From the IMG/VR virus record IMGVR_UViG_3300045988_017255: 42,384 nt of DNA; one strand, given 5' to 3'. This document shows, piece by piece, positions 3,483-27,334 of this stretch. Within the stretch, counting starts at the first letter, position 1. Every line of letters starts with the position of its first letter. The notes beneath the pieces were generated by a model that searched no databases, was not told where the DNA came from, and saw only the letters and a program-made list of their open reading frames with translations. The stretch is from a virus. A program made the translations under genes and the position numbers.

Positions 3483-4676
3483 TCAATCGTCATGCAGAAG
3501 CACCGCCTTTTCTCCGGTAAACTTCTCCCACCGGTCAATAATGACATCGGCATACTTCGGATCGTACTCCATGCAGAAAGCGTGTCTGCCATTCTGCTCC
3601 GCTGCCATAATCGTTGTTCCAGATCCAGCGAACAGGTCGAGAACATTCTCACCCGGCTTACTGGAGCACTGCATCTGGTAATCAAACAGCTTAATCGGCT
3701 TCATGGTCGGATGCTCCGCAGACTTGACGGGCTTATCAAAATTCAGCACGGTTGTCTGCCTGCGGTTCTTGAAGAAGTAGTGCTTCTTGCCTTCCGTCCA
3801 TCCGTACAGGCAAGGTTCGTGCGCTTCCTCTTCAATCTCGCTCTCACCATACAGGCAAGGCTCATGTTTCCACTGGAAATCCTGTCTCCCCATAACAAGG
3901 GAGTTTTTCACCCAGATCAGGCACTGCCGGACACGCAGCATCGCATCTCTGCATGCGCCTCGGAAGTTATACCCCTCGCTGTCTGCGTGCCAGATGTAGA
4001 ACGGAGCACCGGGCTTCATGACCATCGCCGCATTGGAGAACGCATCCGTCAGGAAACGCCTGAAGGCCGTATCCTCCATATTGTCGTTCTTAATCTTCCC
4101 GGCGGTGCCCTGATAGTCCACATTGTACGGAGGATCGGTGAGAAGAAGATCGATTTGTGCCCCCCCCACAAGCTTTTGTACATCAGTCAGAGATGTACTG
4201 TCTCCGCACATCAAGCGATGGTCTCCAAGCTGATACACATCGCCCAGCTTGCTCTTCGGCTCTGCCGGTAAAACAGGATCGTAGTTGTCCTCTACCACTG
4301 ACGTGTCGAGTTCATCACGCAGACCCCAATCAAAGTCAAAAGCAGACAAGTCAAGCCCCGGCAGCTCATCAGCCAGCAGGTCAAAGTCCCAGTCGCTCTC
4401 GTTTCTCTTGTTATCCACCAGCCGCAGGGCGTTCACCTGTTCCGGTGTCAGATCGTCCACGCAGACGCAAGGTACTTCTTCCATGCCCAGCTTCTCTGCC
4501 GCCAGAGCGCGGCAGTGGCCGATTACAATCACACCGTCACGGTCAATCACAATCGGCTGCACAAAGCCGTATTGCTTGATGCTCTCCGCAACGTTTTTGA
4601 TTTGCCGTTTATCATGCTTTTTTGCGTTGCTGGCATACGGCACAATATCCGCAAGCCGCCGTTTTGTGATTTCCAT
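3483..4676 (-). CDS. ParB-like nuclease domain fused to a DNA methyltransferase (DPPY motif)
   Basis: The N-terminus (VPYASNAKKHD...QYGFVQPIVID) is ParB/Srx-like. LLLTDPPYNV is catalytic motif IV and DLFAGSGTT is the AdoMet motif I. ATG at 4676 has a GGAGGA SD upstream. Confidence 0.85.
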   Translation of the reverse strand: MEITKRRLADIVPYASNAKKHDKRQIKNVAESIKQYGFVQPIVIDRDGVIVIGHCRALAAEKLGMEEVPCVCVDDLTPEQVNALRLVDNKRNESDWDFDLLADELPGLDLSAFDFDWGLRDELDTSVVEDNYDPVLPAEPKSKLGDVYQLGDHRLMCGDSTSLTDVQKLVGGAQIDLLLTDPPYNVDYQGTAGKIKNDNMEDTAFRRFLTDAFSNAAMVMKPGAPFYIWHADSEGYNFRGACRDAMLRVRQCLIWVKNSLVMGRQDFQWKHEPCLYGESEIEEEAHEPCLYGWTEGKKHYFFKNRRQTTVLNFDKPVKSAEHPTMKPIKLFDYQMQCSSKPGENVLDLFAGSGTTIMAAEQNGRHAFCMEYDPKYADVIIDRWEKFTGEKAVLLHDD

Positions 4677-4796
4677 GCTTTCCTCCTTGTTTGTCACCAG
4701 CCCCCACCCCTTGGCTACAGTAACAGTCTTTACCCTCCCATGCGGGCCTCTTGGACCTCTCAAACATGGGCTACACACTATTTTTGATATTTTCTA

Positions 4797-6805: not shown

Positions 6806-7000
6806 TCAGCCCTCCTCACAGTAAAATCGGGAAATATCATCCATACGCCAGCGAACCGTGTCAGAAATCAAGGAGTATAGATACCCCCCTTCCATGTGTA
6901 CGGTCTTCACACCGTATATCTGCCGCGGATTCGTGAAATGCCCGAATTGCTTTTTCATGTGTTCCTCAATCTCTTCCTTGAAGATAATAGTCAGCTTCAT
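6806..7000 (-). CDS. Hypothetical protein (64 aa)
   Basis: ATG at 7000 (MKLTIIFKEE...) overlaps the stop of the ASCH gene (ATGA). Confidence 0.5.
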   Translation of the reverse strand: MKLTIIFKEEIEEHMKKQFGHFTNPRQIYGVKTVHMEGGYLYSLISDTVRWRMDDISRFYCEEG

Positions 7001-7584
7001 TCCAGCGCCTCCACATAGCACCAGCTTTGGGGCGGGCGCTCTAAAAAGCATCCTGAATTTTTGCAATCAGGGCAGTCTCTTTTTGCAAGCCCAAGATCAG
7101 CATAAAAACAGTCGCGGTTGTTTTTCTTGAACTCTCGTAACTCTCGCGGCTTATCGTAGATTTTAAGGTCGGAGATGTGCCAACCATAGAGAAACGGCGC
7201 TTTTGCCCCATAAGCGTTGAGTTTTTCTTTTGAAACACACGACGCAGATATGGCTTTGATTTCGGTTTCAATATCGTCATTACCCCATTCGTTGAGCGAG
7301 AGGTAACAATAATCGAAATTTTCAGGTATTCCACGCTTACCAATTTCGTAAATCCGGTCACAGGTAAACTCCCCAATTACCTTGCCTCCGCCATAAAACT
7401 GTGGCTTTGGATAATCCGTTGCAATAAAGTCCTCGTGCGGGTACTTCGGCAGTGTACAGTAGATGTACACCTTGAACGGCGTTTCCAGTTTCGGGCGCGT
7501 CTTGCGGACCTCAATAGTCTTTTCCCCGCTGCAAATTTTCTCGCACCACTTCGGGCGGATGCTCAGCATAACAGCCTTACTCAT
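6997..7584 (-). CDS. ASCH (PUA-like) domain protein
   Basis: MSKAVMLSIRPKWCEKICSGEKTIEVRK is the characteristic ASCH N-terminus. Start placed at 7584. Confidence 0.65.
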   Translation of the reverse strand: MSKAVMLSIRPKWCEKICSGEKTIEVRKTRPKLETPFKVYIYCTLPKYPHEDFIATDYPKPQFYGGGKVIGEFTCDRIYEIGKRGIPENFDYCYLSLNEWGNDDIETEIKAISASCVSKEKLNAYGAKAPFLYGWHISDLKIYDKPRELREFKKNNRDCFYADLGLAKRDCPDCKNSGCFLERPPQSWCYVEALE

Positions 7585-7914: not shown

Positions 7915-8360
7915 CCGGCCCACCTCACGATCTTTTCCCGCACGCCCCATTGGAGTGCATCCTCGTGGCTGTCAAAATACAGATCCAGCCGATTCCCGGC
8001 AATGGCTCCGCCGGTGTCCTGCACGGTGTATGTATGGCCGTCCAGTTCGATTTCCGTACCCATCGGCAGCACATCCGGGTCTGCGGCGATCGTCACGCCC
8101 TGGGTGGCCTTTTCGCCGGTGGCTGTGTAGCCATTTGCATACGCCCCACAGCATTTTTCACAGGGGCAGTACGCAGTGACGGTAAATACGCACGTCCGCG
8201 TCTCCTGGGGTCCCTGCGGCTCATCGCGGGGCAGAACCACCCTCGGCGGCACAACTACAGTCTCCGGCGTTTGTCCGCTGTACTCGGTGGCGGCCGCAAT
8301 GCCCAATGATCCCAAGGTTGCCGCAAGCAGCGCAGTGATTAATAGTGCCTTGCTTTTCAT
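7911..8360 (-). CDS. Secreted 3D-domain (MltA/RlpA-like double-psi beta-barrel) protein
   Basis: N-terminal signal peptide (MKSKALLITALLAATLGSLG). C-terminal TAYCPC..GYTATG..IAADP..LPMGT..YTVQDTGGAI..LDLYF matches the 3D-domain motif pattern. Confidence 0.7.
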   Translation of the reverse strand: MKSKALLITALLAATLGSLGIAAATEYSGQTPETVVVPPRVVLPRDEPQGPQETRTCVFTVTAYCPCEKCCGAYANGYTATGEKATQGVTIAADPDVLPMGTEIELDGHTYTVQDTGGAIAGNRLDLYFDSHEDALQWGVREKIVRWAG

Positions 8361-9166
8361 CTTGCTACCTCCTCCATCGATATTTGCCCATCATCGTAGT
8401 GAGCAAGCATTTTTTCATTTGCAAGGCGGCAGAAATTTCTATCAATTTCAAATCCATATGCCTTTCTTCCCAACTCGCACGCAGCCCGAAGGGTAGCACC
8501 GGAACCAGCACAAGGATCGATCACTACGTCCACCGGATCAGTAAATATTTCGATTAATCTTTTTAAAACCTTCACTGGTTTTTGTGTGGGATGTATTTTT
8601 GGAATATCTTTACCATCCCGCTCCCACTGGAACCAATCGAATACCATTTTCCCGGTGCCGCGAATAGCCTTTCCGTTTTCGTCCATCTCCCGACCGTTGT
8701 TAAATTTGGGGAGCTTGTCACGATAAAGCACAACAGCAAATTCCGTTGCCCCCACAATGCGCATATTGGCTTTGAGCACTTGCGCAGAATAATTCTTGCA
8801 GAAGAAAATCGGATACCAATTTTTGAATCCATACCGAGCCCCGTACTCCGCCACCGTTTGAATTTGATCAAAAGCACAAAATACAATCATTGCCGGGGCT
8901 TTGCCCCGTTGCTTAGGCTCTGGCTTCAGTAGCCGCGAGCAAAAATGCATATATTCTGCGATCTTAAAATATCCATCGGAATTAAAAAAACGACTTTTTG
9001 CAAATTTGCTTTCTCCATTGGCATTGTCGCCACCGTTATACCACACGGGGTTGCTGCCATAGGCATCTGTACCAATGTTGTATGGTATATCCGCAATCAC
9101 AAGCTGTGCCTTTGGAATCCCGTATTTTTTGTAATTTTGAAAATTATCGTGGTAAAGTTTCACCAT
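8357..9166 (-). CDS. DNA methyltransferase (beta-class N6A/N4C type)
   Basis: Motif IV is ADIPYNIG near the N-terminus and the AdoMet motif VIDPCAGSGAT is near the C-terminus. Confidence 0.85.
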   Translation of the reverse strand: MVKLYHDNFQNYKKYGIPKAQLVIADIPYNIGTDAYGSNPVWYNGGDNANGESKFAKSRFFNSDGYFKIAEYMHFCSRLLKPEPKQRGKAPAMIVFCAFDQIQTVAEYGARYGFKNWYPIFFCKNYSAQVLKANMRIVGATEFAVVLYRDKLPKFNNGREMDENGKAIRGTGKMVFDWFQWERDGKDIPKIHPTQKPVKVLKRLIEIFTDPVDVVIDPCAGSGATLRAACELGRKAYGFEIDRNFCRLANEKMLAHYDDGQISMEEVAR

Positions 9167-10667: not shown

Positions 10668-11744
10668 TCAATACCTCACTCCGATGTAGTCCAATACTCT
10701 GGCGTAGCCAAGCCCCTTTTCAGTTGGCTTCCACAGGCCGTCCACAGGGTCATACGCCCCACCGCCAATGCAAAATTCGTAGTGCTTCGGGTGCGTATGT
10801 TTCATCCTCTCAAAACGATTCTCGCCTTTTTCCAGGTGGGCTCCAAATGCGCAGAACATACAGCCCGATCGCTGACATCCCGTACAGTGCAGCGGGCATT
10901 CCGTCAGCGTCGCATCGTAGTCGTTCTCGCCATCGCTTGCTACGATTTCGCCGTACACGCTGGCATATGGGATTCGATTGCCCACAATATACCGCAGCAC
11001 ATCCTGCTCCGTCCAAAAGCTCATCGGCTTTCCCATCGGCCTCTTGCCCTCAAAGGCATTGCAGCCTGTGCGTTGCCATTTCAGCATGCGCAGCCGACTT
11101 TCTTCCGCCATCAACGCTGTCATGGGGTGGAGCCCTGTTTTGGCCTCGAACTTGTGCATGGGCCCCTTTTTCATCACCTTGCAGCATGAATCCGACACGA
11201 GAAACGGCGCATGAACTAAACCCCCCCACTTTTCGCAGTTGTACGGGGATTTTTCTCCATTTTTATCGAGGTATTCCCCGCGTAAACGCTGTGCCGATTT
11301 CCCATCTGGATTAATTCGAGCATTTCCTACATACGCGGCCACCTCTTTGCTCACGATGCTGTACCCGTACTTCGTCACCACCTGTCGAATGTTCATCTTT
11401 GGGCGCAGGCGGAAAAGGTTTACGTTCACGCGGTGGAACTCCCTCCGTAGCCAGTCAGCGCACTCATTGACGAACTTCTGTATCTCTGGATATTCCAGCC
11501 CCGTGTTCGCAAACGCCAAGTTCAGCTCCCACGGCGGTGTCCTGAAGCTCGACAGGTACAACGCCGCCAAATACGCCAGCACCGTGCTGTCCTTTCCACC
11601 GGAAAAACTGACGTAACACTGTCCGCCCCACGCGGTGTACCACTCATCCAGTTTCTCAACGCTGGTGATGACCTTGTCATCCAAATCAAGGGATAGCAAT
11701 TTCTTGGCAGCCTCGCTCGTCAACGGAGTGTTAAACCGTTCCAT
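10668..11744 (-). CDS. PAPS reductase / PP-loop ATP-pyrophosphatase family protein with C-terminal Cys cluster (IbrA/DndC-like)
   Basis: The SFSGGKDS PP-loop motif is present. The C-terminus has CTGCQRSGCMFCAF. ATG at 11744 has a GGAGGTGG SD. Confidence 0.75.
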   Translation of the reverse strand: MERFNTPLTSEAAKKLLSLDLDDKVITSVEKLDEWYTAWGGQCYVSFSGGKDSTVLAYLAALYLSSFRTPPWELNLAFANTGLEYPEIQKFVNECADWLRREFHRVNVNLFRLRPKMNIRQVVTKYGYSIVSKEVAAYVGNARINPDGKSAQRLRGEYLDKNGEKSPYNCEKWGGLVHAPFLVSDSCCKVMKKGPMHKFEAKTGLHPMTALMAEESRLRMLKWQRTGCNAFEGKRPMGKPMSFWTEQDVLRYIVGNRIPYASVYGEIVASDGENDYDATLTECPLHCTGCQRSGCMFCAFGAHLEKGENRFERMKHTHPKHYEFCIGGGAYDPVDGLWKPTEKGLGYARVLDYIGVRY

Positions 11745-12027
11745 CTCCCGCCACCTCCATCTGCCCATCCACCTGCATGGCCTTTGCAAGCATGCTGTAT
11801 GTGGACAGCTCGTCCATAGCCCGCTTGCGGTACATGGCAAGGAGCATCTTCTTCTCCTCGTCCGTCTCCGCCAGTTTATACCCGCCATCCGGCAGAGCCA
11901 CAATGGGCACCCCCTGCCGCCGCTGCGCCCGGATCATTCGCCGGTTCTCTCTGTCCGGCATACCGGTCAATGCTTCAAGGTTTTTCCGGGTGTATGTAAT
12001 GCCGGGAATCATGCGTAATGTGGTCAT
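11731..12027 (-). CDS. Hypothetical protein (98 aa)
   Basis: ATG at 12027 overlaps the DnaC-like stop (ATGA) and has a GGAGG SD. Confidence 0.55.
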   Translation of the reverse strand: MTTLRMIPGITYTRKNLEALTGMPDRENRRMIRAQRRQGVPIVALPDGGYKLAETDEEKKMLLAMYRKRAMDELSTYSMLAKAMQVDGQMEVAGDGTV

Positions 12028-19703: not shown

Positions 19704-20297
19704 ATGGAGAAATCGTTGCAGGACACTTGCCGGGACGCAAAACTGGAACAGCACATCACGGCGCAGGAGATAGCAGACCAATCCGGTGTGCCTTTGTCCA
19801 GCGTTAACAACTTTTTTGCATCCACATCTAAAGCACCGGGCGTGTATGCGGCTGGTCCCATATGCAGGGTGCTGGGGGTGTCTATGGACCGTTACTTTGG
19901 CATTGTAGAGGTTGTTTTGGCGCAAGACCAAATCAAGCAGCTCCAGCAAGTCCATGACGAGGATGTGCGCCTTGCACGGATAGAGGGCGCATACGATGAG
20001 CTGTCCAAATCAGCAGAGGAGCAGAAGAAAAAAGCAAGGCGGCAGCGCACGATGCTGTATATCACATCGCTGCTGTCCGCTATCCTGCTGGGTATAGTTA
20101 CATGGTATGTGGCGCTTGATTACCGTGTGCAGGACGAAGGCCTAATCCGATCCAGGACAGCCGGTACGATTGCATGGATTGTCATTGCGCTTTTGGCGGT
20201 GGGTATCGGCGTACTTACATCCGTGCTATTGTCCACTCTTACGGCGGGCAAAAAAACCACACAAGGCGAGGAAGCAGAAAATGAGCAACTGCATTAA
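19704..20297 (+). CDS. Membrane-anchored XRE-family HTH regulator
   Basis: N-terminal HTH (ITAQEIADQSGVPLSSVNNFF), a coiled-coil middle, and two C-terminal TM segments (LYITSLLSAILLGIVTWYV; IAWIVIALLAVGIGVLTSVLL). Confidence 0.65.
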   Translation: MEKSLQDTCRDAKLEQHITAQEIADQSGVPLSSVNNFFASTSKAPGVYAAGPICRVLGVSMDRYFGIVEVVLAQDQIKQLQQVHDEDVRLARIEGAYDELSKSAEEQKKKARRQRTMLYITSLLSAILLGIVTWYVALDYRVQDEGLIRSRTAGTIAWIVIALLAVGIGVLTSVLLSTLTAGKKTTQGEEAENEQLH

Positions 20298-21372
20298 ATG
20301 CGGAACAACTCTTGTCCCGGGCGCCGTATATTGCCATCTCTGTGGCAAAAAACAGGTAACAGAGCGGCGCAAGGCATTGAAGCGGGCCAACGGCACCGGA
20401 ACTGTATACAAACTGGCGGGGCGTAGAAAATCGCCTTGGGTGGCCGCAAAAAACAAAGTGATTATCGGGCATTATGAGCGCAAAACGGCCGCGCTGGACG
20501 CTTTGGAGCGATTGAACGGCAAGAGCTTAACGGAGCGGTATAATATGACCTTTGCAGAAGTGTTTGATGCGTGGAAAGCAGAGCATTACAAGGAGATTGG
20601 CAAGCAGGGGATAGAATCATATAACAATGCCTACCGCATATTTACGCCGCTCCACGGGAAAAAGTTTCGTGATCTCCGCACCGCAGACTTTCAGGCCGTA
20701 CTTGACCCACACATGACCAAGAGCCATTCCACCGTGAACAAGTATAAGCAGCTCATAACGCAGATGTCGAACTGGGCAATCCGGGAGGAAATCTGCACGA
20801 CAAATTTTGCAAAGTTTGTCCGGCTGCCAGAAAATGTAAAAAAAGAAAAGGACATCTTCACGGTGGAAGATATCCGTAAATTGGAATCCGACAACAGCGA
20901 TGCGGCGAAAATTGTCTTGATGCTGCTGGCAACGGGTATGCGTATCGGAGAACTGTTTGCCCTACCTCTGGCAGACTGTCACGGCGATTATGTGATCGGC
21001 GGCGAAAAAACCGAAGCCGGCAGAAACCGAATTATCCCCATCCGCCCGGAGGGGAAACAATACTTTGCCTATTTTGCGAAGCAAGCAACGGGGGAGCTGC
21101 TTTTATCCGGCTACGATGGGCAAAAAGTCCCGGCGAACTTCCGCAGGCGAGATTTTTACCCGCTCCTTGACAGGCTGGGAATAGAGCGCAAGACCCCGCA
21201 CGCAACACGCCACACATACGCATCCCGGGCGGTAAAAGAGGGATTGCCCCCGGAAATGCTGCAAAAAATACTCGGACACGCCGATTATTCCACCACCGCA
21301 AACATATATACGCACATCGACGCGCAGACACTTGTGGATGCTGTTACTAACACGTTACTAACAAATAAATAA
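20281..21372 (+). CDS. int: Tyrosine integrase with N-terminal zinc ribbon
   Basis: CIKCG...CHLCG ribbon at the N-terminus. Catalytic pattern ATGMRIGE (R), HATRHTYAS (HxxR), LGHADYSTTANIYTH (H...Y). Adjacent to attP. Confidence 0.9.
   Translation: MSNCIKCGTTLVPGAVYCHLCGKKQVTERRKALKRANGTGTVYKLAGRRKSPWVAAKNKVIIGHYERKTAALDALERLNGKSLTERYNMTFAEVFDAWKAEHYKEIGKQGIESYNNAYRIFTPLHGKKFRDLRTADFQAVLDPHMTKSHSTVNKYKQLITQMSNWAIREEICTTNFAKFVRLPENVKKEKDIFTVEDIRKLESDNSDAAKIVLMLLATGMRIGELFALPLADCHGDYVIGGEKTEAGRNRIIPIRPEGKQYFAYFAKQATGELLLSGYDGQKVPANFRRRDFYPLLDRLGIERKTPHATRHTYASRAVKEGLPPEMLQKILGHADYSTTANIYTHIDAQTLVDAVTNTLLTNK
21343..21363 (+). repeat. Arm-type integrase site candidates: GTTACTAACA x2, 11-nt phasing
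   Basis: Copies at 21343-21352 and 21354-21363, inside the 3' end of int. Confidence 0.5.
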
Positions 21373-23829: not shown

Positions 23830-24051
23830 TTACCGGAACAAATTCCCAAATTGGGCCGCCATGCCCTGGAGTTGGTTTAACTGATCCTGCGAGATTTGAC
23901 CGCTTTGCACAAGCCGCTCAATCTCCGCCTTGGGATCGCCTTTAAATGTCGATTTAAACTGATTAAACTGCTGTATCATCTGCGCAAAGCCGCCCATCGG
24001 GCCGGACATCCGCCCGCCGCCCAGCGCACCATAAAACGGATTACCCATCAT
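23830..24051 (-). CDS. Small Gly/Gln-rich protein (73 aa)
   Basis: MMGNPFYGALGGGRMSGPMGGFAQMIQQFNQFKSTFKGDP... Overlaps the upstream stop. Confidence 0.55.
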   Translation of the reverse strand: MMGNPFYGALGGGRMSGPMGGFAQMIQQFNQFKSTFKGDPKAEIERLVQSGQISQDQLNQLQGMAAQFGNLFR

Positions 24052-24478
24052 TATCGGTCTCCTTTACTTTTTTCGGATTTTCTGCGCCTTTTATCTCCTC
24101 CACGATTGCCGTCAGGCGGTCAAACTCTTCTCGCGTGACAAATTCAGCGCCCGGCTTTTTAGGTGTTACAGGCCCTATTTCTGCCCGCTCCTTGAGATCG
24201 TAAATCTTAAGAGATGGTTTTCCGCTGGCATCTGCCTGCTTGAGATAGACGGTAGGTGCGGTACTATCCCATAACGCAACCGCCGCGTTAGGTGCTATTA
24301 TCCAATTCCAAGCCTCCTGCTCGCCGCTTACCCATTGCACCCCGCCCTGTGCGATTGGATTTTGCGGGGCCTGTGGCGTCTGCATCATAGGCATCTGCTG
24401 CTGCCGCATCTGCATGAGTGTGTCCGGCATAGGCTGCGGGTAATAAGGGTTTTGGTAGCCGTAAGGTGTAAAAGCCAT
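24041..24478 (-). CDS. Pro/Gln-rich N-terminus protein (145 aa), unknown
   Basis: MAFTPYGYQNPYYPQPMPDTLMQMRQQQMPMMQ... then a globular part ...VYLKQADASGKPSLKIYDLKER. Confidence 0.6.
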   Translation of the reverse strand: MAFTPYGYQNPYYPQPMPDTLMQMRQQQMPMMQTPQAPQNPIAQGGVQWVSGEQEAWNWIIAPNAAVALWDSTAPTVYLKQADASGKPSLKIYDLKERAEIGPVTPKKPGAEFVTREEFDRLTAIVEEIKGAENPKKVKETDNDG

Positions 24479-24480
24479 AA

Positions 24481-24864
24481 TTATTCCATCCTTTCCGTTG
24501 TCCAGTAATATAAGGGCACTTCGCCGCCCGAATCCCAGGAATCAAAAATTACGCCATCCTGTACGCAGACCACATGCCCGGATAAAGCAAGGATATAAGT
24601 CCCTTTTGGGTGCTCCTCCGCAAACCGCGCCACCGTGTAGCAATCGGGGCATGTGTCCGGGATAATATGCCGCCGGTATCCGATACTGCGCAAGTAGGCC
24701 CCCCAACAGGCGTTAGCGTTTGGCAAATCTCCGTCCAAGTAGCCTTGCATGCACAGCCGGAGGTAAACCTCGCCCCAATCCTTTCCCGTGGCCTTACAGA
24801 TCGCACGGACAGTGCAATCTGACACGTTTTTCCCGCAGGGATTTGGATTAAAATATTTATACAT
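24481..24864 (-). CDS. Papain-like cysteine peptidase-fold protein (putative)
   Basis: MYKYFNPNPCGKNVSDCTVRAICKA (candidate Cys nucleophile) ... LSGHVVCVQDG (candidate His) ... DSWDSG. The pattern recurs in gut Firmicute phages, from memory. Confidence 0.5.
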   Translation of the reverse strand: MYKYFNPNPCGKNVSDCTVRAICKATGKDWGEVYLRLCMQGYLDGDLPNANACWGAYLRSIGYRRHIIPDTCPDCYTVARFAEEHPKGTYILALSGHVVCVQDGVIFDSWDSGGEVPLYYWTTERME

Positions 24865-24997
24865 GATCGCAATCCCTATATAGGCTTTCAGCGATTTCCA
24901 CATACGCTAAAAGCCCCCGGGGATCGTCTGCGTACAGAATGCAAATATCCTGCGCCATTTGCGCGGTAAACCCGCATTTGATTAATCGCTCGTACAT
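24857..24997 (-). CDS. Small hypothetical protein (46 aa, below the ORF-track cutoff)
   Basis: MYERLIKCGFTAQMAQDICILYADDPRGLLAYVEIAESLYRDCDHV. AAGGAGG SD. The stop overlaps the next start by 8 nt. Confidence 0.45.
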   Translation of the reverse strand: MYERLIKCGFTAQMAQDICILYADDPRGLLAYVEIAESLYRDCDHV

Positions 24998-25022
24998 ATT
25001 CCAGCCTCCTTGCCTCTATAAT

Positions 25023-25054
25023 AAAAAAAATCCGGGCAGATAAACTGCCCGGAT
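25023..25054 (-). terminator. Strong intrinsic terminator
   Basis: On the minus strand: a 10-bp stem ATCCGGGCAG / CTGCCCGGAT, loop TTTAT, then TTTTTTTT. Confidence 0.85.
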
Positions 25055-25075
25055 TCTGCCTGGATTCTGCAATGA

Positions 25076-25216
25076 TTAATTTTCTGTTTTTATTGCCTCT
25101 TTAATTAGTTTCTCGATGTAGTTCGAGACGCTGCGCCCATCCGCTTCGGCGGCGGCCTGCAGTTGGGATTTAAGCTCCGGCGTGATCCGGATTACGAGAC
25201 GGTCTGTTTTTGCCAC
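25076..25216 (-). CDS. Ribbon-helix-helix (CopG/Arc/ParD-like) DNA-binding protein, 46 aa
   Basis: GTG start at 25216 with a GGAGGT SD. (M)AKTDRLVIRITPELKSQLQAAAEADGRSVSNYIEKLIKEAIKTEN shows the beta-strand plus two-helix RHH pattern. Not in the ORF track. Confidence 0.6.
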   Translation of the reverse strand: MAKTDRLVIRITPELKSQLQAAAEADGRSVSNYIEKLIKEAIKTEN

Positions 25217-25232
25217 TTGCTACCTCCAAAAT

Positions 25233-25637
25233 TTAATCCCACATATGCGCTACGCAATATGCGCTCCATTTTTCCTCCATCTCGGATATGGCTACGTTAT
25301 AATCCTCACCCGCCAAAATTTTATGCGCAGCGGATTGACCGGCTGTGCGTTTGGCGTAATTTTCGGCCTTGCTCCACTCATCCGCCTTGAGATATGCAAC
25401 AGCTTTTGGATATTGCTTGCGCAGCGCATCAAGATCGTGAGTCGGCTTAGGGCGGACACCCATACCGCCACACGCTGCATCACCATCAAAGGACGCATTT
25501 AGTTCCCGATGCCACGCGCGTAAATCGGCCTGCGCGTTTCTGATTTCCAATAGCCCCGGAATGGCGTTTATCTTGGCCGCCAAGTCCTGCGCCTCTTGTT
25601 TTTCGGATCGCTCTTTTTCCAGTAAGTAATCCATCAT
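25233..25637 (-). CDS. Unknown 134-aa protein
   Basis: ATG at 25637 (MMDYLLEKERSEKQ...) with a GGAGGTGA SD 8 nt upstream. It starts 1 nt after the upstream stop. Confidence 0.6.
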   Translation of the reverse strand: MMDYLLEKERSEKQEAQDLAAKINAIPGLLEIRNAQADLRAWHRELNASFDGDAACGGMGVRPKPTHDLDALRKQYPKAVAYLKADEWSKAENYAKRTAGQSAAHKILAGEDYNVAISEMEEKWSAYCVAHMWD

Positions 25638-25638
25638 T

Positions 25639-25986
25639 TTAGTGCTCACCTCCATACTCTCCTGTGACATCCTCAACGTCAAAATTCCAGGAGTCCCCAT
25701 TATTAATCTCGTCCTCGGTAAGCCCCTGCAATCCATCACCGTCTTCGCCCCTGTTAGCGTTTTCGCACTCGTGCTCCCACCAAGAGATCAGTTCATCGGC
25801 ATCCTTATCTGTATAGGTATAGGCTTTGTCGCAACCACAATCGTCAAGATCAATGACATCATGGCCATCGCGCGCATCGTAACCGCCTATATCGTCAAAG
25901 CAATCGGGTTCATACCCGGCATTCCATCCGCCGCGCCAAAGGCGGAGGGTAATCTCCAGCAATCGAGTTTCGGTTTTGATAAACAT
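25639..25986 (-). CDS. Highly acidic 115-aa protein, unknown
   Basis: ATG at 25986 with an AAGGAG SD. By hand count it has about 32 Asp/Glu versus 8 Lys/Arg. Confidence 0.6.
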   Translation of the reverse strand: MFIKTETRLLEITLRLWRGGWNAGYEPDCFDDIGGYDARDGHDVIDLDDCGCDKAYTYTDKDADELISWWEHECENANRGEDGDGLQGLTEDEINNGDSWNFDVEDVTGEYGGEH

Positions 25987-26037
25987 TTGATTTGCTCCTT
26001 TCTGAATTGGCCTGTCCGTTATCTTTACTGCGGTTAC

Positions 26038-26066
26038 AATGTACGCCATTTGTACGCACAATACAA
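26038..26066 (-). promoter_or_regulatory. Candidate promoter (TTGTAT-N17-TACATT) with TGTACGC direct repeats in the spacer/-10
   Basis: On the minus strand, -35 is at 26061-26066 and -10 at 26038-26043. The plus-strand repeats TGTACGC lie at 26040-26046 and 26051-26057, 11 nt apart. Confidence 0.45.
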
Positions 26067-26075
26067 GGGGGAAAG

Positions 26076-26104
26076 TGCACAAATTTTTATTATTTTTTTG
26101 TGCA
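26076..26104. promoter_or_regulatory. Inverted repeat TGCACAAA-N13-TTTGTGCA in an AT-rich tract
   Basis: Arms at 26076-26083 and 26097-26104, upstream of the cassette promoter. Confidence 0.45.
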
Positions 26105-26142
26105 AAAACGAAAAATAGCCGCGCCCAAAAAGGGCACGGCTA
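26103..26142 (-). terminator. Strong intrinsic terminator
   Basis: On the minus strand: an 11-bp stem TAGCCGTGCCC / GGGCGCGGCTA (one G-U pair), loop TTTTT, then TTTTTCGTTTTT. Confidence 0.85.
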
Positions 26143-26145
26143 CTT

Positions 26146-26421
26146 TTAGGAATTGAATGCATCCGCCAGTTTTTGGTATGCTCGGCGGCGCAATTTGTAA
26201 AATCCATCTACGCTGATATGCAGTTTTGCCGCCGTCTGTACGCAGGTGCGGCCAAAAACGTCCACGTCAATTACACAGGTTTCCTCGTCTTCCGGTAGCC
26301 CTACCGCGCGGATCGTTTCTTTGGCGCGGCATGGCGCCATAGTGGATAGTTTTTTGCGGATCCTTTTGTGCTGATCTATCATTTCCCACGGTGTGCCGTG
26401 GAGGTGCGGATGCTTATGCAC
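26146..26421 (-). CDS. Sigma-70 region-4-like HTH protein
   Basis: The C-terminal AAKLHISVDGFYKLRRRAYQKLADAF resembles a region-4 HTH. The start is uncertain (GTG at 26421 or ATG at 26382). Confidence 0.5.
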   Translation of the reverse strand: MHKHPHLHGTPWEMIDQHKRIRKKLSTMAPCRAKETIRAVGLPEDEETCVIDVDVFGRTCVQTAAKLHISVDGFYKLRRRAYQKLADAFNS

Positions 26422-26472: not shown

Positions 26473-27126
26473 TTACCGGATATACCCCTCAAAGCCGGCT
26501 GCCTTGAGCTTGGCCAGCATCCTCTCCGCGTTGGCGCGGACGGCAAATGCACCCACCTGCACCCGGTAGAGTTTGTCGGTGGCGGCGGGCTTAGGCTGCT
26601 CCTTCTCCTTATAGGTCACGCCGAAGTAGTCGCAGATACCCCGGGCAATGGCCTCTCCGATGTCAACCGTATGCTCCACGATCCACTTGGCGGTGGTGGC
26701 GTTGTCGTGGAACTCGCACTCGATATAGGTCGTAGGGGCGCTGGGCACCCGCACCTCGTACAGGGAGGCATCCACCCGGATATTCTCGCTGGTGCCGGGG
26801 GTCACCGGGGCCAGCCGGGAAAAGATAGCCTTGCAGGCCTTCATGCCCTCGCCGCTGCTGTTAAAGCAGAACATGCGAGTACCGCTGACCTTGCCGTTAA
26901 AGGCGTTGGTGTGGATGGGCACATGGAGATCCGCGCCGAAGGCGTTGGATTCCTTGCACTTATCCTGCATGGAGGGCATATGCCCTACCTTCACGGTCAC
27001 GCCGCTGCGCTCCAGGGCGGCGCGGCAGGCATCGGCAATTTTACCGCACTGGACGGCCTCGGTGGTGTTGCCGTAGGCATAGCGGTTGTCGGTCTGATTG
27101 CTGGGAGACAGATATACTTTAGCCAT
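26473..27126 (-). CDS. Endolysin: N-acetylmuramoyl-L-alanine amidase (Amidase_3-like) with C-terminal SPOR-like domain
   Basis: MAKVYLSPSNQ...HVPIHTNA...ECEFHDN carries amidase motifs. The C-terminal YRVQVGAFAVRANAERMLAKLKAAGFEGYI is SPOR-like. Follows the holin. Confidence 0.85.
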   Translation of the reverse strand: MAKVYLSPSNQTDNRYAYGNTTEAVQCGKIADACRAALERSGVTVKVGHMPSMQDKCKESNAFGADLHVPIHTNAFNGKVSGTRMFCFNSSGEGMKACKAIFSRLAPVTPGTSENIRVDASLYEVRVPSAPTTYIECEFHDNATTAKWIVEHTVDIGEAIARGICDYFGVTYKEKEQPKPAATDKLYRVQVGAFAVRANAERMLAKLKAAGFEGYIR

Positions 27127-27334
27127 TTTCATTTTCCTCCTTGTTATAGGTGGCGGTGGAGATGCACAGCACCGCGCCGAAAAAGGTGTCCACGGCGGTG
27201 ATGGTGGTGACGATCTCCTCCGAGTAGGGCCAGGCCCACACGGCGGACAGGGCCGCGTACAACGTGGCGATGGCCGGCAGGACGATGATGACCACCCACT
27301 TGAGAATGTCATACAGCTTGTCAGGGATTTTCAT
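27119..27334 (-). CDS. Holin (Dp-1-type)
   Basis: MKIPDKLYDILKWVVIIVLPAIATLYAALSAVWAWPY...TFFGAVLCIS. It has two TM segments and lies directly upstream of the amidase. Confidence 0.75.
   Translation of the reverse strand: MKIPDKLYDILKWVVIIVLPAIATLYAALSAVWAWPYSEEIVTTITAVDTFFGAVLCISTATYNKEENENG

Follow-up and report, generated by a model that had tools for sequence, protein, structure and literature searches.

Between positions 25017 and 26147, the 42,384-nt viral sequence IMGVR_UViG_3300045988_017255 from IMG/VR (the whole stretch is called the window below) carries a minus-strand cassette of three genes, designated g1, g2 and g3. On balance we favour the view that this cassette is an accessory operon, portable and insulated by terminators, which is carried by a temperate gut siphovirus and follows the logic of acr-aca (anti-CRISPR and anti-CRISPR-associated) operons: a ribbon-helix-helix (RHH) protein would repress its own synthesis, while the cargo genes would be interchangeable and may be directed against host defence. 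The parts of this statement differ in strength. The regulatory logic, with autorepression by g3, is predicted with high confidence, whereas an anti-defence function of the cargo is a close call that leans slightly in its favour. The elements of the cassette are as follows.

26101..26147, minus strand: upstream intrinsic terminator, stem 26147-26111 followed by a T-run, 16 pairs, 8 GC (terminator scanner)
26104-26097 and 26083-26076, minus strand: inverted repeat TGCACAAA/TTTGTGCA, read directly
26066-26038, minus strand: sigma-70-type promoter, TTGTAT (26066-26061), 17-nt spacer, TACATT (26043-26038)
26050..26061, minus strand: predicted operator site 1, the 12-bp palindrome TTGT-GCGT-ACAA in the promoter spacer
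26038..26048, minus strand: predicted operator site 2, GGCGTACATT, overlapping the -10 hexamer, its GTAC core 11 bp from the core of site 1
26009..26028, minus strand: conserved leader GTAAAGATAACGGACAGGCC, which begins 9 nt past the -10 hexamer
25639-25986, minus strand: g1, acidic cargo protein of 115 aa, 32 Asp/Glu versus 8 Lys/Arg, pI 4.05, net charge -24
25233-25637, minus strand: g2, helical cargo protein of 134 aa, a short allele without the N-terminal domain
25076-25216, minus strand: g3, Arc-like RHH protein of 46 aa with a GTG start, predicted autorepressor
25017..25057, minus strand: downstream intrinsic terminator, stem 25057-25027 followed by a T-run, 13 pairs, 7 GC (scanner)

The three genes lie on the same strand with intergenic gaps of 1 and 16 nt, and they are served by a single promoter and a single terminator. 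Among eight sites scanned between 24000 and 27500, the two cassette terminators, both with T-runs, were by far the strongest. The upstream one separates the cassette from the lysis operon and a 91-aa gene, and equivalent terminators stand ahead of related cassettes. An initial annotation, made from the letters of the window alone, had described a terminator-flanked minus-strand unit of this kind; the scanner found both terminators, and the coordinates and lengths of the three genes, the count of acidic and basic residues in g1 and the GTG start of g3 were all confirmed. All three genes are under purifying selection, and the order of cargo first and regulator last is kept in at least ten loci.

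The product of g3 matched the Pfam families RHH_5 (8.8e-8; 32.2 bits, the cut-off being 26) and Arc (22.4 bits, with 20.4 as the cut-off) as well as the PHROG family of Arc-like repressors (1.5e-6). These matches bear out its earlier description as an RHH protein and, at the level of profiles, it is a member of the ribbon-helix-helix (Arc/MetJ) superfamily. The g3 family comprises 27 clusters of proteins of 45-48 aa, and its gene is always the last of a short cassette.

The predicted operator of g3 lies within the promoter. The direct repeat TGTACGC occurs at 26040-26046 and 26051-26057, 11 bp apart and inside the spacer and the -10 hexamer, just as had been annotated, and the composite double repeat GYGTACANNTGGYGTACA has a chance expectation of 0.05 per window. 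When the promoter regions of ten RHH-type cassettes were aligned, both operator-type GTAC sites, the one in the spacer and the one at the -10 hexamer, were present in 10/10. Most of these cassettes have the same order of elements: TTTGTGCA, the -35 hexamer, the palindrome TTGTrCGyACAA, GGyGTACAAT as -10 region, and the leader GTAACCACAGTAAAGATAACGGACAGGCC. The centre of the palindrome flips between loci; in L032 and L034 the centre of site 1 is inverted (ACGC) and its arms are kept. Nine of the ten were counted as sharing the leader. L034 is without the upstream TTTGTGCA element and without the leader, while L022 possesses the element together with a different leader.

The 8-bp inverted repeat reported upstream of the promoter was also present at the position claimed. 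Spanning 26076..26104, it is equivalent to two extra TTGTGC half-sites (plus strand 26098-26103 and 26077-26082). Its promoter-proximal arm TTTGTGCA is kept in nine of the ten aligned cassettes, L034 being the one without it, and appears as the variants TTTGTGTA or TTTGGCTA in L031, L033 and L032; the distal arm TGCACAAA is restricted to the lineage of the window. TTGTRC half-sites form their densest cluster of the 42-kb window at the promoter (four in 55 bp, matched in 14 of 5000 random placements). This clustering suggests that the inverted repeat supplies auxiliary half-sites and is possibly an auxiliary operator. A palindromic near-match to the double GTAC arrangement, GTGTACAGTAGATGTACA at 7452-7470 of the window, was rejected as a second operator; it is situated inside coding sequence (the gene at 6997-7582) and probably arose by chance.

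A survey of gene co-occurrence across 35 loci revealed that g1, g2 and the RHH gene occur together only in close relatives of the window phage. A long form of g1 accompanies the RHH gene in L021 and in L006, an unrelated phage with a P22-type portal; g1 without g2 is found in many phages, and g2 without g1 in seven loci, one of them a 218-kb phage-like contig. An obligate pairing of g1 and g2 was considered and rejected: the 192-aa gene that follows g1 in L001-L005 encodes a Cys-rich, zinc-ribbon-like protein and not g2. The RHH regulator in turn goes with no fewer than five cargo sets that are unrelated to one another, and at one locus one set has been swapped for another. Its cargo is a 70-aa protein in L033, where the cassette lies antisense between head-morphogenesis and portal genes, a 99-aa and a 130-aa protein in L032, and a 165-aa protein in L034/L035. 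All of these are unrelated to g1 and g2 and without a match in Pfam or PHROGs. The 70-, 130- and 165-aa cargoes are acidic (pI 4.05-4.5), while the 99-aa one of L032, with a pI of 9.56, is basic and of the double helix-turn-helix (HTH) kind.

The swap concerns L037 and L043, which were recovered by scanning IMG/VR with the leader alone. Both belong to the lineage of the window phage and have an identical locus, promoter and RHH gene, but carry the 70-aa cargo instead of g1 and g2. This difference at the same locus is direct evidence for cargo swapping. The initial annotation had treated the three genes as one system, which does not hold: g1 and g2 occur independently of each other and the RHH protein also serves other cargoes. 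By their distribution, g1, g2 and g3 are modules rather than a single system.

Elsewhere, in different phages, g1 precedes a gene whose product has an XRE-type HTH at its end, and a gene for a Cys-rich zinc-ribbon-like protein often lies between the two. The HTH partner matched HTH_3 in L028 (1.1e-9) and L029 (4.1e-5); in L001 only weak HTH matches were obtained. These HTH-type g1 loci possess a consensus promoter, TTGACA-N17-TATAAT, preceded by a terminator, and the promoter spacer contains a palindrome of the CCAC-N7-GTGG type which extends to the -10 hexamer. The loci examined add up to 358 kb, and in them each type of operator was found once, in the right orientation and only at its own kind of cassette; the two were never crossed. 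Across these loci the predicted operator changes together with the regulator.

Several observations were made on the partners of g1 and of the RHH operator. The Cys-rich protein encoded between g1 and the HTH gene (L001:8305-8883, L023:4305-4880, L022:4316-5464, L025:4290-4982, L026:4355-5047) contains repeated GxRFGRWxVLG...CxCDCG...SCGC modules with the look of zinc ribbons and possibly an AP2-like C-terminus, belongs to no Pfam family, and in L022 is fused to an HTH-like tail. L036 (~10700-10900, minus strand) and L045 have an RHH-type operator, the leader and a cargo gene of 81-83 aa, with no regulator gene in the stretch examined; an RHH protein encoded elsewhere may control them in trans, as reported for Aca14, a regulator discussed below. 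At the divergent g1 locus L027 (3820-3990) the palindrome ACATTGCGCAATGT occurs twice, 40 bp apart, upstream of g1, and the 138-aa gene downstream of g1 is without a recognisable DNA-binding domain.

The conserved leader is the third element that travels with the cassettes. In the window and in L036-L052 the 20-nt sequence GTWAAGRTAACGGACAGGCC always begins 9 nt past the -10 hexamer. It is common to at least four types of promoter region, three of which have unrelated spacer repeats and two of which have different identified regulators. The first type is that of the 46-aa RHH cassettes. The second combines TTGACT-N17-TATACT with a TTTATATAAA palindrome and a last gene of 119-152 aa whose product ends in an RHH-like segment; one cassette of this type encodes full-length g2. 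TTGAAT-N17-TATAAT with AATATAT-N7-ATATATT makes up the third type, and L036 and L045 with their RHH-like operator the fourth. HTH-type cassettes have a related leader start, ACAGTTAAGA... The idea that the leader is a structured RNA was rejected, as neither a consensus structure nor covariation was found and no family in Rfam matched.

The first cargo gene, g1, belongs to a family with 36 close cluster representatives, or 118 when 1.84 billion representatives were searched exhaustively with a profile. Nearly all members are about 100 aa long, and acidity is a family trait: the pI is below 5 in 147/149 members and the median net charge is -17. The ratio of nonsynonymous to synonymous substitution rates (dN/dS) is 0.03-0.14. 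The AlphaFold model of g1, a confident one (pLDDT 85.7, pTM 0.77), consists of a beta-sheet packed against a long helix. A Foldseek search with this model gave no match in the PDB at E <1, and in BFVD it matched solely uncharacterised gut-phage proteins. Neither blastn nor tblastn found g1 in 50,697 deposited phage genomes or in PLSDB, and an exact-sequence look-up of P0001 returned no match. In our view the most likely role of g1 would be to inhibit a defence protein of the host that binds nucleic acids, perhaps through charge mimicry of DNA. Two natural fusions of the g1 domain were observed, one with an HTH_3 domain (P0154) and one with an HNH endonuclease domain (P0183); the latter is the sole basic member of the family.

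The g2 family consists of helical proteins of 175-188 aa. A full-length relative, P0037, was modelled with a pLDDT of 90.1, and the family model gave no Foldseek match in the PDB at E <1. Structure prediction followed by Foldseek had been proposed in the initial annotation as a check on both cargo proteins; its outcome is that neither has a relative in the PDB. Sequence searches with g1 and g2 yielded nothing in Pfam, PHROGs, NCBIfam or PADLOC, and profile searches of the PDB gave only noise. The same deposited phage genomes and PLSDB contained g2 in one unannotated record only. Its dN/dS, calculated from 56 differences, is 0.17. A resemblance was noted in L015 (5449-5985 and 6001-6567) and L049 between the N-terminal domain of full-length g2 and the C-terminal end of an acidic protein of 157-178 aa encoded just upstream; since this upstream protein weakly matches the g2 profile (2.7e-4), a small domain in common is suggested.

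We infer binding and repression by g3, the timing of expression and the anti-defence activity or target of the cargo along the following lines. Host sigma-70 RNA polymerase would start at the promoter at 26066-26038 and transcribe g1, g2 and g3 as one mRNA of roughly 1 kb ending at 25057-25027. g3, the last product to be made, would dimerise and bind the two GTAC-centred sites, which share a face of the helix at a distance of 11 bp, covering the spacer and the -10 hexamer; the TTGTGC half-sites upstream may assist. Binding would shut the promoter, so that a burst of cargo would be followed by a low level. g1 and g2 would act as independent, interchangeable cargo proteins.

The layout pointed out in the initial annotation, with genes for small acidic cargo at the head, a gene for a small DNA-binding protein at the end and operator repeats in the promoter, is that of acr-aca operons of the Aca1/Aca2 type, and it was borne out in that the RHH gene, the operator and the leader travel together with unrelated cargoes. 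In other words, the assignment is now made by comparison and no longer by resemblance, because regulator, operator and leader recur with varied cargo and the operator follows the regulator. Further points of likeness to acr-aca operons are the position of the operator repeats over the promoter, a conserved regulator with unrelated, variable cargo, a cargo-regulator fusion (P0154 here), and the occurrence of cassettes in prophages and conjugative-type elements. The cassettes differ in that the regulator is an RHH and not an HTH protein, no cargo is a known Acr or other anti-defence protein, the phages infect Gram-positive gut bacteria that are uncultured, and repression is predicted from sequence.

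An RHH-type Aca protein, Aca14, whose operator lies over the -10 hexamer, was described in July 2026 and demonstrated by experiment (bioRxiv 10.64898/2026.07.27.740549). Aca14 is a protein of 67 aa from Proteobacteria; it has a helical extension at its N-terminus, and its binding site is the inverted repeat TGTATATG..CATATACA. HTH-bearing, dual-function Acr proteins were noted in the same work (bioRxiv 10.64898/2026.07.27.740549), and the g1-HTH_3 fusion P0154 resembles these. The initial annotation had considered the cassette a candidate for an undescribed system, and with Aca14 already known (bioRxiv 10.64898/2026.07.27.740549) its regulatory principle is no longer undescribed. Aca14 and g3 have in common an RHH protein in the aca position, a repeat overlapping the -10 hexamer and a possible reach to other promoters. 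They differ in size (46 aa for g3), in sequence (32% identity over 37 aa) and in the operator, which for g3 would be two GTAC-centred sites 11 bp apart.

Arc-like control is also found in the immI region of phage P22, where Arc and Mnt govern the antirepressor gene ant, with arc first and ant second. There an Arc-like RHH protein autoregulates a small insulated operon among the late genes of a temperate phage, as is predicted here, and it is plausible that g3 binds as a tetramer to two sites separated by one turn of the helix. In the window, however, the RHH gene comes last, a divergent Mnt-like gene is absent and the cargo bears no relation to Ant. The known acidic DNA-mimic inhibitors, Ocr, ArdA, AcrIIA4 and AcrIF2, are similar to g1 in size and in their extreme negative charge, and ArdA adjoins g1 in one context.

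The case for an anti-defence function is made up of four circumstantial lines, namely operon architecture, extreme and conserved acidity, rapid cargo turnover and known anti-defence genes in the neighbourhood. One identical HTH-type g1 cassette was found in two settings, namely in prophages, between the lysis genes and the integrase, and beside an ArdA-YodL-DUF4316 gene, a neighbour typical of conjugative elements. The L034 cassette adjoins a gene for Sequestin (PF21825), a verified anti-Thoeris sponge family, and the g2 cassette of L015 is located 2.5 kb from a Tad2-like gene.

Several points weigh against this interpretation. The evidence from neighbouring genes is circumstantial and comes from few loci. 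No cargo showed homology to known anti-defence proteins or defence systems in Pfam, PHROGs, NCBIfam or PADLOC. The charge of g1 is that expected of a DNA mimic, but no sequence or fold similarity to Ocr/ArdA-type or the other acidic inhibitors was found, and phages commonly encode small acidic proteins. Insulated cassettes under RHH control serve other ends too, as arc-ant of P22 immI illustrates, and g3 was rejected as a member of the Aca14 family, the identity being limited to the RHH core and the N-terminal helical extension being absent. The promoter of the window matches only 7/12 consensus positions and was missed by the scanner. The sigma-70-like promoter of the initial annotation was located where claimed, but by consensus it is not strong; it is credible because the aligned homologous promoters of relatives (L006, L032 and L033) have better hexamers, TTGACT/TACAAT in the case of L032. 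Finally, alignment with L031:797-1925 showed that g1 and g2 of the window are clean in-frame deletion derivatives, g1 missing about 243 bp for a C-terminal extension and g2 about 144 bp for the N-terminal domain. Such short alleles are present in several phage contigs, and this occurrence together with purifying selection indicates functional genes rather than debris. Identity to L031 is roughly 75-80% for the g1 segment and roughly 97% for g2 and g3, and this unevenness points to mosaic recombination within the cassette.

How else might the cassette be read? A more far-reaching form of the anti-defence interpretation, which we regard as unlikely, is that gut Firmicutes phages share a counter-defence cassette-exchange system defined by the leader, in which the leader is itself functional (for example as an RNA signal at the 5' end, as the site of a second common regulator or as a recombination handle) and g1 is a DNA mimic of new fold that blocks defence without a matched inhibitor. 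Quite unlikely, in our view, is an antirepressor or inter-phage competition cassette comparable to P22 immI. In such a cassette the acidic cargo would attach to a CI-type repressor at its DNA-binding domain, with the RHH protein limiting expression of the cargo; the repressor could be encoded by the phage itself or by a prophage or integrative and conjugative element (ICE) residing in the same host. The similarity of g3 to Arc in Pfam and PHROGs, the temperate nature of the phage (integrase at 20170-21372), the insulation of the cassette outside the early and late operons and a variable acidic cargo that could have diversified against different repressors all fit this idea. On the other hand, the gene order of the cassette is opposite to that of arc-ant, with the regulator at the end as it is in acr-aca operons; ArdA is a neighbour of the same g1 cassette in an ICE-like setting, and sponge genes are neighbours of other cassettes; and cassettes are also found in the packaging regions of phages with no integrase seen in the stretch examined.

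The last of these observations also bears on a lysogenic-conversion or superinfection-exclusion moron, in which a prophage-expressed cargo would protect or benefit the host and the RHH protein would set a low steady level. The insulated unit with its own promoter does sit between the lysis and the lysogeny genes, which is where morons are classically found, and autorepression would yield constant low expression. Yet the cargoes occur in the 218-kb phage-like contig as well, they gave no PADLOC hits and have no predicted enzymatic domains or library matches, and by eye they are without the transmembrane-like hydrophobic stretch of typical exclusion or defence proteins. Moreover, the g1-HTH fusion P0154 is of a kind typical of Acr-Aca fusions (bioRxiv 10.64898/2026.07.27.740549). 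We consider a moron of this sort distinctly improbable. A type II toxin-antitoxin module with the RHH protein as antitoxin, the other alternative raised in the initial annotation, is very improbable. Partner genes are shuffled, the operon is predicted to be autoregulated and g3 weakly matches the RHH antitoxin families TacA1, ParD and RelB, the latter two below the curated cut-offs. However, g3 is a bare 46-aa RHH domain lacking a toxin-neutralising extension; its partners are acidic (pI 4-4.5), apart from the basic 99-aa protein of L032, and none has a toxin-like domain; and g1 is also fused to a regulator in P0154 and has HTH partners one gene away elsewhere.

The cassette is of value for its search handles more than for any new principle, autoregulated accessory or anti-defence operons being an already known kind of unit. 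Most of the Aca markers known so far are from Proteobacteria, Listeria and Streptococcus. To our knowledge, the anti-defence genes of phages of gut anaerobes, whose hosts are rarely cultured, are almost unknown. New here are an RHH regulator family and candidate inhibitor families from this under-explored host range. Three handles are available: the 46-aa RHH family with its operator, the HTH partner family with its own operator, and the 20-nt leader. Together they recovered about eight unrelated families of small, mostly acidic cargo, and if one of these proves to be an inhibitor the remaining ones become prioritised candidates. The RHH-operator pair could also act as a compact autoregulated expression module.

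The window is from a temperate siphovirus of the human gut. It encodes an SPP1-type portal, a large terminase, two DNA methyltransferases, a PAPS-reductase-domain protein and, at 20170-21372, a tyrosine integrase. The terminase is 99% identical to that of an unannotated human faecal phage contig, and only 35-44% identical to those of Eggerthella and Clostridium phages. One metagenome-assembled genome labelled Bacteroidaceae was encountered in a scan of genome contigs, and this was not trusted as a host assignment. On the minus strand the tail genes are followed by a holin, an Amidase_3-SPOR endolysin (26473-27312), a 91-aa sigma-r4-like protein and then the cassette. A compositionally foreign origin of the cassette was rejected, as its G+C content (48.7%, compared with 51.8% in the window) is not distinctive.

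Downstream of the cassette, at 24041-24997 on the minus strand, lies a conserved block of genes for proteins of 46, 140 and 145 aa. The 140-aa protein belongs to phrog_3754, and its conserved Cys and His suggest a cysteine peptidase-like fold; the 145-aa protein belongs to phrog_21718. The block is found again after the g1 cassettes of L021, L028, L030 and L037 and can therefore be taken as a marker of a common insertion hot spot. Elsewhere in the window, all on the minus strand, are a ParB-N-fused N6/N4 DNA methylase (3483-4778), the second DNA methylase (8357-9166) and the PAPS-reductase-domain protein (10668-11903), gene types that are often tied to the evasion of restriction or other defences.

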